From contig NZ_JBGQKW010000002.1 in the NCBI RefSeq assembly GCF_041499725.1, forward strand, positions 37,643 to 101,642: a DNA stretch of 64,000 bases, in the 5' to 3' direction. The notes below the pieces were generated by a model. The model did no database searches and was not told where the DNA came from. It saw only the letters and a program-made list of their open reading frames with translations. This stretch comes from Sulfuricaulis sp. Its GTDB lineage: Bacteria; Pseudomonadota; Gammaproteobacteria; Acidiferrobacterales; Sulfurifustaceae. Below, piece after piece: positions 9,231 to 17,980 of this stretch. A program made the position numbers and the translations under genes. The stretch's first letter is position 1. Each line of letters begins with the position of its first letter.

Positions 9231-10727
9231 ATGAAGAACGCTAAATTTTTCCACGGATCTTCGTTCTGGGTCGGAGCCCTGGCAATCCTGGGTCTTTTCT
9301 TGCTCGCACTGCCAAGCAGCGACGTGTTTGCAGCGCCCGCAACACGCAACGTAAGTGCTGACCATATCAAGACCGGATTCCCGCTGACCGGGGCACATGT
9401 CACGCTTCCTTGCGAGACTTGTCACGTTCAGGGCACTTTCAAAGGTACGCCCAAGAAATGCGAAACCTGCCATACCCAGGGCAGCCGCATTCAGACCGCC
9501 ACCTTCAAGCCTAATAACCACATCGCGACCACTCAGGCATGCGATCAATGCCACAGATCCACCACGTCATGGAACGTGGTGATGTTCAGTCACGTCGGCG
9601 TCATTCCTCATCAGTGCGCGCAATGCCATAACGGCACCGTCATCATGGGAAAACCGGCGAACCACGCGCCAACCACCGCACCTTGTGACACTTGCCATCG
9701 CACCACCACATGGATGAGCGTGGGCTTTAACCATGTCGCCGTAACGCCAGGCAGCTGCGCCACCTGTCACGTCCCGGGCGGCTCCGGCACGGCCAAGCCG
9801 TCTAACCACATGCCGACGACCCTCTCGTGCGATGCCTGTCATAACACGAGCACGTACATGACCTCGACCTTCACGCACTCAACCACGCAAGGTGTTCTAC
9901 CCGGTCAATGCAGCACCTGCCACAATGGTTCATACACCCAGTGGAACGCGCTCGGCAAAATACCGAACCACGTCGCCACCACGGCATCGTGCGATACCTG
10001 CCACACGGGTTACGTGACGTTCGCGAGCGCCGCCGGCTCCACGTTCAACCACACCGGCGTGGCCCCGGGTAGTTGCGCCACCTGTCACGTCCAGGGAGGC
10101 TCCGGCATGGCCAAGCCGACCAACCACATCCCGACGACCGTCAACGCGTGCGATGCCTGCCACAACACGAGCACATTCGCGACCTCAACATTCGCGCATT
10201 CCACCACGCAAGGCGTCCTGCCCGGGCAATGCGCGACTTCTGGATGTCACAGCGGGTCTTACACAGCGTGGAATGCCCTTGGCAAACCGTCGGGGCATAT
10301 CGCCACCACAGCCTCGTGCGACTCCTGCCACGCGGGTTTCACGACATTCGCCAATGGAGTGTTTAATCACACCGGCATAGCCCCGGGCACCTGCGCCACC
10401 TGCCACGTCCAGGGTGGATCGGGATTGGCCGCGCCGATCAATCACATCCCTTACCAGTCTCAGTTGGTTAACGGCGCCAGCATGAGCTGCGATGCCTGCC
10501 ACACAAGCACGACCAGTTTTACGGCTGAGAGGATGAATCACAACAATAGCCTGGGTAATGGCGCGGGCTGGTGCAAAAGCTGCCATCAGAGTGGTACGAG
10601 CTTCCTCGGCAATATGCAGCGGATGTCGTTGACCCATCAAAAGAGTACCGGGGTCACAGACTGCTCCCAGTCCGGCTGCCACCGGCCTTTGGGTAACACG
10701 GGTAGCGCCTACACGAAATGGAACTGA
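9231..10727 (+). CDS. Secreted multiheme c-type cytochrome, 15 CxxCH + 2 CX4CH
   Basis: ATG 9231 with GAGGA RBS; signal peptide (...DVFA/A); Thr/Ser/Gly/Asn-rich repeats with FNH/FxH distal His motifs. Confidence 0.92.
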   Translation: MKNAKFFHGSSFWVGALAILGLFLLALPSSDVFAAPATRNVSADHIKTGFPLTGAHVTLPCETCHVQGTFKGTPKKCETCHTQGSRIQTATFKPNNHIATTQACDQCHRSTTSWNVVMFSHVGVIPHQCAQCHNGTVIMGKPANHAPTTAPCDTCHRTTTWMSVGFNHVAVTPGSCATCHVPGGSGTAKPSNHMPTTLSCDACHNTSTYMTSTFTHSTTQGVLPGQCSTCHNGSYTQWNALGKIPNHVATTASCDTCHTGYVTFASAAGSTFNHTGVAPGSCATCHVQGGSGMAKPTNHIPTTVNACDACHNTSTFATSTFAHSTTQGVLPGQCATSGCHSGSYTAWNALGKPSGHIATTASCDSCHAGFTTFANGVFNHTGIAPGTCATCHVQGGSGLAAPINHIPYQSQLVNGASMSCDACHTSTTSFTAERMNHNNSLGNGAGWCKSCHQSGTSFLGNMQRMSLTHQKSTGVTDCSQSGCHRPLGNTGSAYTKWN

Positions 10728-10781
10728 ACTGGACCGGGTTTAGACGTGTCACTACATGCCTATACTAAAAGGAATTTAATC

Positions 10782-11282
10782 ATGAAGAATCCGCTACTCG
10801 GGGTCGCCCTGCTGTTCATGGCATTTACCAGCTTGGGTATCGCACGCGCCCAAGACAACACCATCCTGGATGACGTGGATACCTCGGTAGAATCCGAGTG
10901 GGCGCGGATTAGTATCCATTTTTCTTTGCCGGTGAACTACGTACGCCATTCTCCGCAAGAGCGCGGACAGTTACTGCAGATATTTTTTACCATTGCCTTC
11001 CTGGAAGCACAAAACATCAGCCTGCGGGAAGAAGTCCGGAATGTGCCCGCCACGCCCGTCATGCCCGCCACCACTATCACATACCAGCCGCCCCTGTCTC
11101 TCAATTTTCAGCGTGAGCCGTCATCGCTCCTGGTGCGTTTCGATCGTGTTGTCAATTACGATGTCCGGCCGGGAGATGACCATCGCAGTATCGTGATTTA
11201 TTTACCCATTGCGCCAAGGGATACCAAACCGGCCAATACGGCCAAGGACAAACCGGTGGGAAAGGACAGTCCGGCTAAATAA
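10782..11282 (+). CDS. Small secreted protein of unknown function (AMIN-like beta domain suspected)
   Basis: AGGA RBS, signal peptide ending A-R-A, alternating beta-strand pattern; between cytochrome and porin. Confidence 0.7.
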   Translation: MKNPLLGVALLFMAFTSLGIARAQDNTILDDVDTSVESEWARISIHFSLPVNYVRHSPQERGQLLQIFFTIAFLEAQNISLREEVRNVPATPVMPATTITYQPPLSLNFQREPSSLLVRFDRVVNYDVRPGDDHRSIVIYLPIAPRDTKPANTAKDKPVGKDSPAK

Positions 11283-11315
11283 CAAGCACCTCGTCTTCTT
11301 CCATTACTTTCAATT

Positions 11316-13916
11316 TTGAGAATAACCATCATGTGGGCTGTTACCCTCGTTGTGCTTGTTTTTTTGTTGGTACATTTTTCACTCGCAACCCCCGCTCAGG
11401 CTCAATCCGATGAAAAGATCAGCCCTGATATCGAAACTGACGCAAGAACCGAAAAACATTTCGTGGTGACACTGCGCAGCAGCTTCACGCCGATTTCGGA
11501 CAAACAGGCCAAGCGCGACTTCCCGGACAGCCCGGTTTATCTAATTCAGAGCAAGGCGTTTGATAAGACTGTCTATCTCGTGCGCGCGGGTTTTTTCGAA
11601 AACTATGTCGATGCCACGGCGTTTCGCGAGCGCGCGCTATCCAAATATCCCGCGGCACAGGTCTCCGAAATCACGCGCAACGAATATCTCACCATCCAAC
11701 GCACATTACCGGCCCCGAAACCGGGCGCACCGACAATAATGGCTAAAAAGATCGGGCCCAAACTGACGCCCTTGGCGCCACCCGCGCCCATCCCTGTACC
11801 GGTACCCTCGGCACCCGCCCCTGTGCCAGCACCACCGGCCAGCGCGGGTGTATTCTCGCCCAAGGCTCTTTACGCCATTTTGCTTGAGGAAAGCAGTCAA
11901 GCCGCTCCGGCGGCGCGCGCGCCGCTGCCGGCATCGCTAAAAAACTACCGTCTGTACACCACCCAAACACGCGACAAGAACAAAATCTTTTACCAGTTAA
12001 AACTCGGGTTCTTTGAAAATGAGCAAGACGTCTATGCCGCACGCAAGCAGCTGAAAGATATCTATCCAAACACGAAAGTGATCCATACCGCCTTGAACGA
12101 ACAGAAAGACTCGGTACGCACCGCCTTAAGCACGCCCACCGTGTTGCCGTCAGTCGTAGCGCCGGTACCGAAAGTGTCACCGGGCGCTGTCGCAAAAGTG
12201 CCAGTGCCGGCCCCGATCCTGCCTGCCGCTGTCCCGGAAATCACGCCGAGCGCTACGGCAACACCCGCAAGCTCCTACGATCGTGATGCCCTCGTGTTGC
12301 TGGACAAAGGCCGTGCGGCACTCGCGCGCGGCGATAACAATGTCGCCATTGCCACGCTCGATCAATTGCTACGACTGCCGCCGAATCGCTATTCCCAGGA
12401 CGCGCAGGAACTGATCGGCCTCGCCCGCCAGCGTGCCGGGGAAACCCTGGCGGCACGCAAGGAATACGAGCTTTATCTTCACCTTTACCCGACAGGAGAA
12501 GGCTCGGACCGCGTGCGCCAGCGTATCGCCACGCTCGATGCCACGATTACGACAACACCTTCTGCCGCGCTCAAAGCCGTCAAGCCGCGTATGGAAGCGC
12601 AATCCACCATCGTTGGAAATCTGTCGCAGTATTACTACCACGGCGCCAGCAAACTGGACAGCACGACGCTGACCCCCACCGCCAACACACAAAATCAGGC
12701 CAGCCTGACACAGACCGACCAAAGCTCGCTCGTGACCAGTCTCAACTTTTTGCACCGTTACCGCAGCGAGGATTACGACAACCGTCTGGTGATACGCGAC
12801 ACCTTCACCAAGAACTTCCTGCAGGGCCAGGAGGATACCAATCGTCCCAGCGCCATTTACTACGAGCTCAAGGACCGCAAGCTCGACTATTCGGCACGCG
12901 TCGGCCGCCAACCCGGCGGTTCCAGCGGCGTGCTCGGGCGCTTTGACGGGATACTTGCCGGCTATAACTTCTCGCCCAAATGGCGGGTCAACGTCGTGGG
13001 CGGTATACCAACCGATATCTCATACGACTCGCATTTGCACTTCCTCGGCACAGGAATCGACATCGGCCCGTTTGCCGAGCACTGGGGCGGCGGCTTGTAC
13101 ACGATCGAACAGAAGGTGGACGACGTCACGGACCGTCATGCCGTGGGCAGCGAAATCCGCTATTTCAGCCAGGTATTCACCCTGTACGGGCTGTTCGACT
13201 ATGACACGGAATTCAAGACCTCGAACATTGCCATGGTGCAAAGCAACTGGACCGCGACCAGCGGTACGTCTGTACACGCCTTGTTCGACAGGCGCAAAAC
13301 ACCGTCGTTGTCGCTCACCAATGCTTTGCAAGGAGAATCCGACACGTCGATCAAATCGCAGCTCCAGACAAAAACCTATGAGCAGCTCAAACAACAGGCG
13401 CTCAACCTGACATCCACGACGGATCTGCACAGCGTGGGAATCTCACAACCATTGAGTACGCGCTGGCAGGCGGGATTCGACGTACAGTCGGCGCACACCT
13501 CGAGCACCGCGGGCTCCGTGAATCAGCCGGCCCAGCCGGATACCGGCACCATCTACACGTATACCGGAAATCTCATCGGTACCGGCATCTTCACGCAGCG
13601 CGATGTTAATGTGTTCAGCATCAGCCACATCGTTGGCCCGACATTCGACGGTAATTCGTATTCCTTGACCAACCGCCTGCTCTGGGGTCCAAGCTGGAGC
13701 CTCGACACCACCCTGAGCTGGTACTCCCAACACGATTCGAGCACCAATACCGATGTGGATCGCTTCTCACCTTCGTTGAAGCCGAGTTACAAGTGGAAGC
13801 AGAACATCACCCTGGAGGCAGAATTTGGCGAGGAACATACGACTAACAAGGGTACGACGACCGAAGACACAAACCGGCGTCGGTACTGGTCGCTGGGTTA
13901 CCGTTGGGACTTCTGA
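11316..13916 (+). CDS. Outer-membrane beta-barrel porin with N-terminal SPOR-like domains, Pro-rich linkers and TPR
   Basis: Signal peptide; two YLVRAGFFEN/YQLKLGFFEN SPOR-like repeats; TPR-like AQELIGLARQRAG..YELYLHLYP; amphipathic strands; C-terminal LGYRWDF BamA signal. Confidence 0.8.
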   Translation: MRITIMWAVTLVVLVFLLVHFSLATPAQAQSDEKISPDIETDARTEKHFVVTLRSSFTPISDKQAKRDFPDSPVYLIQSKAFDKTVYLVRAGFFENYVDATAFRERALSKYPAAQVSEITRNEYLTIQRTLPAPKPGAPTIMAKKIGPKLTPLAPPAPIPVPVPSAPAPVPAPPASAGVFSPKALYAILLEESSQAAPAARAPLPASLKNYRLYTTQTRDKNKIFYQLKLGFFENEQDVYAARKQLKDIYPNTKVIHTALNEQKDSVRTALSTPTVLPSVVAPVPKVSPGAVAKVPVPAPILPAAVPEITPSATATPASSYDRDALVLLDKGRAALARGDNNVAIATLDQLLRLPPNRYSQDAQELIGLARQRAGETLAARKEYELYLHLYPTGEGSDRVRQRIATLDATITTTPSAALKAVKPRMEAQSTIVGNLSQYYYHGASKLDSTTLTPTANTQNQASLTQTDQSSLVTSLNFLHRYRSEDYDNRLVIRDTFTKNFLQGQEDTNRPSAIYYELKDRKLDYSARVGRQPGGSSGVLGRFDGILAGYNFSPKWRVNVVGGIPTDISYDSHLHFLGTGIDIGPFAEHWGGGLYTIEQKVDDVTDRHAVGSEIRYFSQVFTLYGLFDYDTEFKTSNIAMVQSNWTATSGTSVHALFDRRKTPSLSLTNALQGESDTSIKSQLQTKTYEQLKQQALNLTSTTDLHSVGISQPLSTRWQAGFDVQSAHTSSTAGSVNQPAQPDTGTIYTYTGNLIGTGIFTQRDVNVFSISHIVGPTFDGNSYSLTNRLLWGPSWSLDTTLSWYSQHDSSTNTDVDRFSPSLKPSYKWKQNITLEAEFGEEHTTNKGTTTEDTNRRRYWSLGYRWDF

Positions 13917-13926
13917 GGGAACGCGG

Positions 13927-14577
13927 CTAACGGACGTTGCGCTGATACTGCCGGTACAAGGTCAGGACGCGCGGGACGTACTGCAGCGTCTCGCGATAGG
14001 GAGGAATGCGGTTGCCGTACTGGACGATGGCGTCCTCGCCGGCATTATAGGCGGCCAGTGTCAGCGACAGGTCGTTGTTGAATTTCCGCATCAGGTCATG
14101 CAGGTACTTCGCCCCACCCTGGATATTCTCCGCCGGATCGTAGAGATTGCGCACCCCGTAACGTCGGGCGGTTTCGGGCATGAGCTGCATGAGGCCCACG
14201 GCGCCCTTGCGCGAAACGGCGTGCGGATCGAAACCGGATTCCGTCGCGATCATCGCCTGCAGCAGCGCCTGATCGAGACTGTGTTCGCGCGCCGCCTTTT
14301 CCACCAGCAGCGCATACCGATCAGAAGCGATGGGATACCCAGAGGAAGTTTTTACTGGCTTGTAAGCCGACACCCTGTACGGAGCGCGCGTCATTCCTGC
14401 GTAGCGCGGGTCGGAGGGCACGTTGGTGAAGTGGGTGACGCCGCTGATGTCCGTGAAGGTATAAACCGTCGCCCGCGCCGGTTCGGCCATCAGGACCGCG
14501 AAGCTGGCCACGATAATTGTCAAGGCGCCATGAAGCCGCATGGTTATTTTTGTGGGGTTTCCAGATTTCTTGCGCAC
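13927..14577 (-). CDS. Slt-family lytic transglycosylase with N-terminal DUF4124-like domain
   Basis: ATESGFDPHAVSRKGAVGLMQLMP and LAAYNAGE motifs; signal peptide. Confidence 0.9.
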   Translation of the reverse strand: MRKKSGNPTKITMRLHGALTIIVASFAVLMAEPARATVYTFTDISGVTHFTNVPSDPRYAGMTRAPYRVSAYKPVKTSSGYPIASDRYALLVEKAAREHSLDQALLQAMIATESGFDPHAVSRKGAVGLMQLMPETARRYGVRNLYDPAENIQGGAKYLHDLMRKFNNDLSLTLAAYNAGEDAIVQYGNRIPPYRETLQYVPRVLTLYRQYQRNVR

Positions 14578-14648: not shown

Positions 14649-15530
14649 TTATGTTTTTCCCATTTTTTCGCGGGTCTTGCTGACAATACGGCGCAGATGC
14701 TCCGCCTCTTTGCTGTCCGCCGGCAGGGCTTTCAGCAACTGCTCCCATAATCCGAGCGCCTGCTGGTAATCGCCCTTCTGAAAAGCGGCCAAGCCGAGAA
14801 ACCACATGGCATCCTGGTTCTGCGGGTCAAGTTTCAAGAGCTTGCTGAAAAGAGAAAATACCGGCCCACCGGTATTCTGTGGGTCCATGTTGTAGAGGAA
14901 TGAGGCGTATTCCGCCACCACTTCCGGGTTATCGGGCATGAGCTTGTAAGCACGTGCGTAGGCGGCCTCCGCCGCCTCCTGACGACCCATCACCCCGTAG
15001 GCGCGCCCCAGCCGCAACCAGCCGGCGGCATCGTCCGGCTGCTCTTGCAGGCGCTTTTCCAGGCGCGCGACCATCTCCAGTGCCATCGGGGGCACGGAGG
15101 CATTGGCGGGTATTTCAGGATTGAAGAGATACGCCAGGGTGTTGCGCTGCCCCAGAGCGTAAAGACCGGCGGAGGTCAGGGGCAGCACCACGCCGAGGGC
15201 AACCAAGCCGATGGCCCAGCCGCGGCGCGATTCACGCTTGGCCTTCTTTGTTTTCTTCCCGGCACTGCCCAGCGTTTCAAGTTCACGCAGGGTCCGGGCG
15301 AGTTCGGCTTCGAGGCGGCGGCGCTCGTCATTCACCACGTCGGCGTCTATGTTGCGGTCGCCCTCTTCGATATCGAGTTCGTTGAGCTGCACGAGCAGGC
15401 GCTCACGCAACTGCTGCAATTGATCGCGGTGCTCGCCGTTGTCCTGCATGGCCGGCCGCGCCAGCGGACGCGCCACGTACCACACCGTGGCGATCACGAT
15501 CAGCACCGCGATGGCGGCGAACCAGATCAA
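14649..15530 (-). CDS. ccmI: Cytochrome c biogenesis protein CcmI/CycH (TPR)
   Basis: Two TM segments, LEKRLQEQPDDAAGWLRLGRAY TPRs; follows ccmH. Confidence 0.9.
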   Translation of the reverse strand: MIWFAAIAVLIVIATVWYVARPLARPAMQDNGEHRDQLQQLRERLLVQLNELDIEEGDRNIDADVVNDERRRLEAELARTLRELETLGSAGKKTKKAKRESRRGWAIGLVALGVVLPLTSAGLYALGQRNTLAYLFNPEIPANASVPPMALEMVARLEKRLQEQPDDAAGWLRLGRAYGVMGRQEAAEAAYARAYKLMPDNPEVVAEYASFLYNMDPQNTGGPVFSLFSKLLKLDPQNQDAMWFLGLAAFQKGDYQQALGLWEQLLKALPADSKEAEHLRRIVSKTREKMGKT

Positions 15531-15976
15531 GTGTTGCTCAGCTTACGCGCGCTGCGCACGCGCTCGGCGTCTTCCTTGGAAAGCGGCGGCGTCGGCGGCA
15601 TGGAGGGACGCAGCCGGCGGCGCAGGAAAACGAACCCGGACGCGCCCACGACGACGATCAGCGTCAGCGGTCCGGCCCACACGATGGCACCCGATCCGCG
15701 CTTGGGCGGGCTCATCAATACATAATCACCATAACGGTCGACAAAATATTTGACGATCTCGTCGCGCGATTTACCGGCCTGAACCTGCTCGCGGATGATG
15801 GCGCGCATGTCACGCGCCAGATCGGCGTTGGATTCCGACACCGGCTGGTTCTGGCACACGGTGCAGCGCAGATCCTTGGCGATGTCGAGCACCTGCCGCT
15901 CCAAGGGGTCTTCCGTCACTTGCGTGGCGAACACCGGCAAGGAAACGAGGAGAAATAGAAAGATCAGACACCGCAT
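15527..15976 (-). CDS. ccmH: Cytochrome c biogenesis protein CcmH/CycL
   Basis: LRCTVCQNQ motif, RYGDYVLMSPP. Confidence 0.93.
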   Translation of the reverse strand: MRCLIFLFLLVSLPVFATQVTEDPLERQVLDIAKDLRCTVCQNQPVSESNADLARDMRAIIREQVQAGKSRDEIVKYFVDRYGDYVLMSPPKRGSGAIVWAGPLTLIVVVGASGFVFLRRRLRPSMPPTPPLSKEDAERVRSARKLSNT

Positions 15977-15982
15977 CAGGGA

Positions 15983-17980
<1,998 letters not shown>

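Follow-up and report, generated by a model that had tools for sequence, protein, structure and literature searches.

Conduits of the MtrCAB, MtoAB and PioAB type carry a multihaem cytochrome threaded through an outer-membrane beta-barrel. MtrB itself is a bare 26-strand barrel devoid of periplasmic domains, and conduits of the Mtr/Mto type are not known to need a dedicated lytic transglycosylase. The porin-cytochrome cluster PCC3 shares this logic, with no detectable sequence relation between its porin and those barrels. As outlined in two published accounts (He, Barco, Emerson & Chan 2017, PMC5566968; Hoover et al. 2023, PMC10734462), PCC3 comprises four genes, encoding an inner-membrane protein (IMP), a periplasmic cytochrome with 21-27 haems, a Thr/Ser-rich outer cytochrome and a barrel; it is a widespread candidate for extracellular electron transfer and iron oxidation, of putative function, and its papers treat the porin as a plain barrel. 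Here, we describe a PCC3 locus, encoding a candidate conduit, in a stretch of 64,000 nucleotides from Sulfuricaulis sp. (contig NZ_JBGQKW010000002.1, positions 37,643 to 101,642; the whole stretch is called the window), the contents of which were read from open reading frame (ORF) translations, Pfam scans and synteny. The locus shares the gene set and order of the published clusters. Unlike the published four-gene form, it has a separate fifth gene for an exported all-beta protein, hyp178, and two SPOR-like repeats on the porin. Our overall reading, held with moderate confidence, is of a PCC3 porin with a SPOR-like accessory arm that likely tethers it to the cell wall, next to a lytic transglycosylase gene (slt) that belongs to the ccm locus and is adjacent by position. 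What is new is a conserved periplasmic superstructure (beta-sandwich plus TPR) on these porins and, in many lineages, a SPOR-like arm on long tethers, which bears on the positioning of such a conduit, with its 40-plus haems, relative to the wall that it spans.

The conduit genes, in window coordinates, are as follows.

6464-7387, plus strand: PCC3 inner-membrane protein (motifs in the translation; probable ATG start at 6479 or 6557)
7306-9207, plus strand: 24-haem multihaem cytochrome c of the periplasmic PCC3 type (24 CXXCH; Pfam Cytochrome_C7 and c3_2; syntenic in most loci)
9135-10727, plus strand: Thr/Ser-rich multihaem cytochrome c of the extracellular PCC3 type (15 CXXCH and 2 CX4CH)
10746-11282 (shorter start 10782), plus strand: hyp178, exported all-beta protein of 166-178 residues (jackhmmer family; AlphaFold2)
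11331-13916, plus strand: PCC3 porin, P0001 (866 residues; the ORF opens at TTG 11316)

The translated IMP contains two WX3HX13H motifs (WFRVH-13-H and WHILH-13-H) and SGIIG, and the cluster is identified as PCC3 because these match the definition of He et al. (about 300 residues, SGXXG and two WX3HX13H; PMC5566968). The IMP gene is kept across PCC3 loci. Both multihaem cytochrome genes lie directly upstream of the barrel gene, an order shared by most of the 80 PCC3 loci with synteny that were retrieved from genomes, including those of Gallionella, Ideonella and Thiobacillus. With Gallionellaceae and the Leptothrix/Ideonella group taken as recognised hosts, the window porin was found to be 33-41% identical to Gallionella and Ideonella porins over the TPR and barrel (tblastn), in loci of matching synteny; its closest named relatives are from Sulfuricaulis, with 81% identity to porins of metagenome-assembled genomes and 65% to S. 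limicola SCL_0889. Two multihaem cytochromes beside a barrel, the IMP motifs and porin homology to recognised hosts are thus all present, and to judge from its genes the window cluster is a PCC3 as defined by He et al. 2017.

The porin gene probably starts at the ATG at 11331, homologues likewise beginning MWAVTL, and its product is built of the following parts.

11331-11402, plus strand: Sec signal peptide MWAVTLVVLVFLLVHFSLATPAQA (sequence reading; N-terminal helix 2-22 in the model)
11451-11705, plus strand: SPOR-like repeat 1, residues 46-130 (Pfam SPOR, 15.8 bits; AlphaFold2; Foldseek)
11706-11864, plus strand: Pro-rich disordered linker 1, 30% Pro (predicted local distance difference test score, pLDDT, <50 at residues 132-178)
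11865-12110, plus strand: SPOR-like repeat 2, residues 184-265 (Pfam SPOR, 18 bits; AlphaFold2; hhalign to repeat 1)
12111-12275, plus strand: Pro/Val/Ala-rich disordered linker 2, 22% Pro (pLDDT <50 at residues 275-315)
12276-12548, plus strand: TPR module of five helices, residues 322-411 (Pfam TPR_9/TPR_16; AlphaFold2 helices)
12600-13913, plus strand: outer-membrane beta-barrel of about 22 strands, residues 429-866 (AlphaFold2 DSSP; C-terminal motif GYRWDF)

A preliminary description of the window had placed two SPOR-like repeats, Pro-rich linkers and a TPR ahead of the barrel, and this architecture was borne out by Pfam, hhalign, AlphaFold2 and Foldseek. The Pfam scan that it called for gave a SPOR match of 24.2 bits for the whole porin (E 4.3e-5; cut-off 21), with TPR_9 and TPR_16 below threshold; among 24 diverse homologues, the alignment on which the Pfam survey of the family was done, 14 matched SPOR at E<=0.01, the best at E 3e-7. 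Aligned with hhalign, the two repeats are clearly homologous (probability 99.2%, E 1e-19). A merged profile of both repeats, from 33 family members, had the SPOR domain of DamX as its top match in the whole PDB (E 5.3e-4, over the full domain); merging was needed, as the single-repeat profiles were too weak against PDB sequences (DamX E 0.09).

The AlphaFold2 model of the porin, built with 106 homologues (mean pLDDT 81.4, about 90 inside domains), folds residues 48-119 and 186-257 as beta-alpha-beta-beta-alpha-beta with the four-stranded antiparallel sheet of SPOR domains (pLDDT about 90). Repeat 1 is modelled with strands at 48-56, 74-81, 84-94 and 115-119 and helices at 63-68 and 97-107, and repeat 2 with strands at 186-193, 212-220, 223-233 and 254-257 and a helix at 236-246. 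Foldseek searches with a second AlphaFold2 model, of the N-terminal parts, gave as the best domain-sized matches of the SPOR-like domains RlpA SPOR (6i05/6i09; probability 1.0, template modelling (TM) score 0.64-0.65, root-mean-square deviation 3.0 A over 74 columns) and CwlC SPOR (1x60; TM 0.68, probability 1.0), with DamX and DedD also matched. The repeats share with the SPOR domains (PF05036) of FtsN, DamX, DedD, RlpA and CwlC this fold and sequence similarity over beta3-alpha2-beta4, and RlpA, like the porin, is an outer-membrane-attached protein bearing a SPOR domain. Unlike canonical SPOR domains, they have far lower scores (the canonical SPOR proteins of the window's own genome reach 55-66 bits in the genome scan), carry Thr or Leu for Gln, and stand in tandem on Pro-rich tethers, fused to a barrel. 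Judged from alignments and models, the repeats are real but divergent SPOR-like domains; we class them as SPOR-like, not canonical, because the glycan-contact Gln and Arg are replaced. The beta3-alpha2 stretch of the repeat profile (GFYATQAAA) also matched PDB 6ozd_A weakly at two places; this solved 538-residue 'putative exported protein' may be another tandem SPOR-like protein.

In the structure of RlpA with glycan, the highly conserved Gln270 (FtsN Q251) and Arg309 (FtsN R285) are the key contacts, and SPOR domains recognise lytic transglycosylase products and denuded glycans (PMC6895207). Neither porin repeat has this pair of a Gln in beta1 and an Arg in beta3. In the DamX alignment, repeat 1 has Thr52 in the Gln column, where Thr is the family consensus ('AVTL'/'AITL'), and repeat 2 has Leu189; in the column of RlpA R309 they have Leu88 and Gln227. 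The equivalent of R311 alone persists, as an invariant Arg90 in repeat 1 and as Lys229 in repeat 2, on a provisional mapping of residues from DamX to FtsN/RlpA numbering. These replacements, together with single-repeat Pfam scores below the cut-off (15.8 and 18 bits; 15 and 17.5 in the genome scan), tell against a wall anchor, and peptidoglycan binding by the repeats is a plausible prediction from sequence and model whose chances we consider about evenly balanced. Of the wall-anchored conduit put forward in the preliminary description, the tether therefore stands as a reasonable proposal on account of the SPOR-like domains, linkers and TPR, while the glycan-contact Gln expected of it is replaced by Thr52 and Leu189.

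Since both repeats, throughout the family, have other residues in place of the hallmark Gln and one Arg, a possible though rather unlikely alternative is that the repeats have lost glycan binding and act as protein-protein modules, for example as a dock or chaperone for the 24-haem cytochrome or for hyp178, or in barrel assembly together with the TPR, which resembles BamD/YfiO below threshold. The first repeat (SPOR1) was found only in loci with a separate hyp178, as if taking over the N-terminal position, which would suit such a role. On the other hand, the repeats resemble true SPOR domains in their overall fold and throughout their second half, DamX lacks the Arg and yet binds glycan, the long Pro-rich tethers are better suited to reaching a distant layer than to docking a partner that stays at the barrel, and the variable copy number suggests an arm outside the core conduit.

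In the wall-tethered reading that we prefer, the conduit would combine the porin with the b-haem IMP, the 24-haem and 17-site cytochromes and the hyp178 beta-sandwich. The short TPR, the barrel of about 22 strands and hyp178 would most likely hold and assemble the cytochrome wire, and the two SPOR-like domains, on Pro-rich tethers of 40-50 residues, would most likely tie the conduit non-covalently to peptidoglycan. Similar tethering is provided on other envelope proteins by OmpA/Pal, the SPOR domain of RlpA and the AMIN domains of PilQ; the PilQ secretin and the OmpA/Pal anchors pair an outer-membrane channel with flexible periplasmic modules on peptidoglycan, as proposed here for the porin.

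The TPR and barrel also raise the question of whether the protein is a polysaccharide export barrel of the BcsC/PgaA/AlgE type that merely lies beside cytochromes. In Pfam, the porin TPR scores 29-34 bits for TPR_9 and 22-27 bits for TPR_16, both below cut-off; TPR matches occur in 23 of the 24 diverse homologues, the model has five paired helices, and many residues are invariant, so that residues 322-411, on sequence and model, qualify as a TPR that is invariant across the porin family. The modelled barrel (429-865) has 23 DSSP strand segments, most likely 22 strands, and Pfam gives weak LamB/OMP_b-brl matches at the C-terminus of the whole porin; no curated NCBIfam model matches the porin, hyp178 or the IMP. 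Foldseek with the full-length model returned generic outer-membrane barrels at low TM, with no MtrB, BcsC or PgaA in the top 50. A TPR joined to a barrel is indeed the architecture of such exporters, and AlgE appears at Foldseek rank 41. However, these barrel matches are generic, no glycosyltransferase neighbours were found among the clustered ORFs, and in essentially every locus with sufficient flanking sequence the gene is strictly syntenic with the b-haem IMP and two multihaem cytochromes, all of which makes an export barrel very improbable.

The barrel contains a conserved helical insert at residues 663-699 (window 13302-13412), between strands 13 and 14, with the pattern TNALxGExDTSIxxxLQTxTxEQLKQQA and an invariant Ala695; this insert may serve as a plug or latch, or may touch a cytochrome. 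In some close relatives (L004, L008 and G005:C20:17005-19604), the porin frame is broken between SPOR1 and SPOR2 and appears as separate ORF fragments, with an in-frame TGA in G005; either faulty assembly or a decaying arm could account for the breaks.

The arm was counted in the 68 of the 80 PCC3 loci with a complete porin N-terminus, copies being found by hidden Markov models (HMMs) of both repeats. Two copies are present in 12 porins, all of them from Acidiferrobacterales, one in 22, from several Burkholderiales, Thiobacillus and gammaproteobacterial clades, and none in 34, from Gallionella/Nitrosomonadales and Ideonella/Sphaerotilaceae. Because half of the PCC3 porins do without it, the arm is not essential to the conduit, which tempers any central role for it; by these counts it is an accessory part of the PCC3 porin. 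In a tree of the core (TPR plus barrel alignment, quick search, midpoint root), the SPOR-bearing clades are deepest, the SPOR-less Gallionella and Ideonella clades are nested inside, and at least five changes of copy number are implied; the iron oxidisers studied for PCC3 belong to the clades without repeats. This tentatively suggests an old SPOR-like module that the model iron oxidisers have lost and that underwent duplication in Acidiferrobacterales, 'ancestral' being only tentative because the root is a midpoint root.

A bolder form of this history is that PCC3 was ancestrally wall-tethered, by a divergent SPOR-like subfamily with a Thr/Leu-type glycan site and by a new beta-sandwich, and that the conduit is mechanically coupled and perhaps patterned at septa or poles. 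We regard this as unlikely; if true, no machine for extracellular electron transfer before PCC3 would have had a wall anchor of its own, and the studied iron oxidisers would be lineages that lost the anchor. A keyword search of published PCC3 descriptions met no mention of SPOR, TPR, peptidoglycan, transglycosylase or the hyp178 beta-sandwich, and a search of the literature library found no paper combining 'SPOR domain', multihaem and porin. Loss of the module in the model iron oxidisers may explain the silence of those descriptions. Automated annotation already calls relatives of the porin 'SPOR domain-containing' or 'TPR repeat protein'.

Downstream of the porin, the window contains the following features.

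13927-14577, minus strand: Slt, exported DUF4124 and family-1 lytic transglycosylase of 216 residues (Pfam; probable ATG start 14541)
14383-14499, minus strand: DUF4124 domain of Slt (Pfam)
14017-14304, minus strand: SLT domain of Slt (Pfam)
14649-15530, 15527-15976 and 15983-17980, minus strand: ccmI, ccmH and ccmF, respectively (Pfam CcmF_C, Cytochrom_C_asm, CcmH and TPR_CcmH_CycH)
4327-13887, no single strand assigned: PCC3 cassette of about 9.6 kb, comprising a small ORF, an Fe-S/FAD oxidoreductase and the PCC3 genes (absent from the relative G017)

Coordinates and Pfam matches confirmed the earlier observation that an Slt-family gene, the last of the ccmF-ccmH-ccmI run on one strand, ends 10 bp after the porin stop; the two stops (porin 13914-13916, slt 13927-13929) are convergent. 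Slt scores 28 bits for DUF4124 and 106.7 bits for SLT (PF01464; E 6.7e-31, cut-off 21.3), has the intact catalytic motifs of a family-1 lytic transglycosylase (ATES at 111, GLMQL at 128 and AYNAG at 176), and shows weak NCBIfam matches to a flagellar-assembly lytic transglycosylase and IagB. A consensus scan of the minus strand between ccmI and slt revealed no terminator-like site and no sigma-70-like promoter.

Lytic transglycosylases dedicated to one machine are known in VirB1, EtgA/IagB and FlgJ, which have the same family-1 SLT catalytic domain as Slt. The preliminary description had likewise made Slt a dedicated enzyme that opens a purpose-made hole through which the long periplasmic cytochrome crosses the wall, with the SPOR domains holding the conduit at naked glycan, perhaps at septa or poles. 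The convergent stops, the export signal and intact motifs of Slt, the fact that transglycosylase products and denuded glycans are the SPOR ligands (PMC6895207), and the adjacency kept in nine related loci are all consistent with such an enzyme. The synteny check that the description had called for nevertheless went against it: linkage of slt with PCC3 is not conserved beyond close relatives, an SLT gene being present in nine of the 80 loci, all Sulfuricaulis-type (phmmer with Slt against all ORFs), and the remaining 71 had none up to 10 kb from the porin. In other relatives, the junction of porin and ccmI is occupied by a hydrolase-like gene in L003, by an ABC ATPase in L051 and by a small lipoprotein in L010 and L011, and is empty in L042. 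Among clustered downstream ORFs of the 80 loci, ccm genes are the best conserved of the PCC3 neighbours, ccmI occurring in 30 loci and ccmH and ccmF in 26, and no wall enzyme is conserved. Genes of ccm system I flank PCC3 across distant lineages, including L010, L011, L042 and L080, and in the Ideonella group (L045-L068) the porin is followed, on its own strand, by a complete set of ccmABCEFHI.

Within the window's genus, slt follows the ccm genes. Genomes of the genus have two DUF4124-SLT paralogues, and the window-type copy (54-100% identity) lies after ccmH-ccmI in 16 of them. Cultured S. limicola (G014) shares the window's arrangement of porin and slt. Five genomes have this copy without a PCC3 porin (G017, which is 99% complete, G015, G010, G020 and G012), in G018 (L078/L085) and G002 (L090) only the last 66-106 porin codons are left beside slt, and in G011 (100% complete) PCC3 adjoins ccmFHI with slt on another contig. 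PCC3-bearing genomes outside the genus have a distant DUF4124-SLT paralogue only, far from the cluster (more than 375 kb in G024). The ccm-linked slt appears, from these comparisons, to be a genus-specific duplicate of an order-wide, housekeeping DUF4124-SLT paralogue. The second paralogue of the genus (G000:C22:26596-27168, outside the window) is 38% identical and conserved across the order.

The G017 locus (L142) gives the clearest comparison. In blastn, its ccmFHI-slt block aligns to window 18202-13888 and its ccmG..A block to 4326-1032, with 18 bp between the blocks; the locus is otherwise collinear with the window, and ccmF-H-I-slt runs straight into ccmG-E-C-B-A. Since G017 matches the window minus 4327-13887, PCC3 and the oxidoreductase form a cassette between two convergent halves of the ccm locus, ccmABCDEG and ccmFHI-slt, with slt as part of the surrounding ccm frame. 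Placement of the cassette there brings the porin and slt stops within 10 bp of each other. The porin remnants in G018 and G002 and the clean absence in G017 point to repeated loss of the cassette within the genus.

Because slt tracks ccmFHI and survives loss of PCC3, it is, on this genomic evidence, next to the porin by position only and not a PCC3 component. VirB1, EtgA/IagB and FlgJ sit in the operons of their own machines and co-occur with them, whereas the window slt lies on the strand opposite to the porin, in a ccm operon, is confined to one genus and persists without PCC3; Mtr/Mto-type conduits, as stated above, are not known to need such an enzyme. A Slt dedicated to PCC3 is in our estimation improbable, and the purpose-made hole is not upheld, which removes from the model a tempting but wrong inference. 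A counterpoint to a purely positional slt is that the gene has been kept beside PCC3 in about ten genus genomes, and a secondary, lineage-specific functional link between slt and PCC3 is possible on this pattern.

The remaining addition to the described cluster, hyp178, is modelled by AlphaFold2 as a 9-strand beta-sandwich (pLDDT >90) and has no match in Pfam (57 members scanned), NCBIfam or PDB sequences. By jackhmmer, 38 of the 68 porins have the hyp178 domain fused at their N-terminus, and in 23 it is encoded by a separate upstream gene; it is fused in Gallionella, Ideonella and Thiobacillus (loci L018-L068) and is a separate exported protein in Acidiferrobacterales, including the window. 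On these sequence comparisons, hyp178 is a previously undescribed conserved part of PCC3, nearly universal, whether fused or separate. Assignment of hyp178 as an AMIN domain (PF11741) was not supported at the sequence level, Pfam, the PDB sequence search and hhalign (probability 5%, with an AMIN profile built from the window's genus) all being negative; the porin also differs from PilQ in barrel family. In fold, hyp178 resembles only weakly the B2 domain of PilQ (Foldseek probability 0.94, TM 0.46) and small heat-shock proteins.

Searched against the whole protein library, the hyp178 HMM matched 1180 representative clusters with a bimodal length distribution (about 140-280 and about 700-930 residues). 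One protein of 2358 residues, P0142, contains 15 tandem hyp178 copies, and a betaproteobacterial contig (L032) encodes two PCC3-type porins about 2 kb apart (5276-7573 and 9596-11713), each with a fused hyp178.

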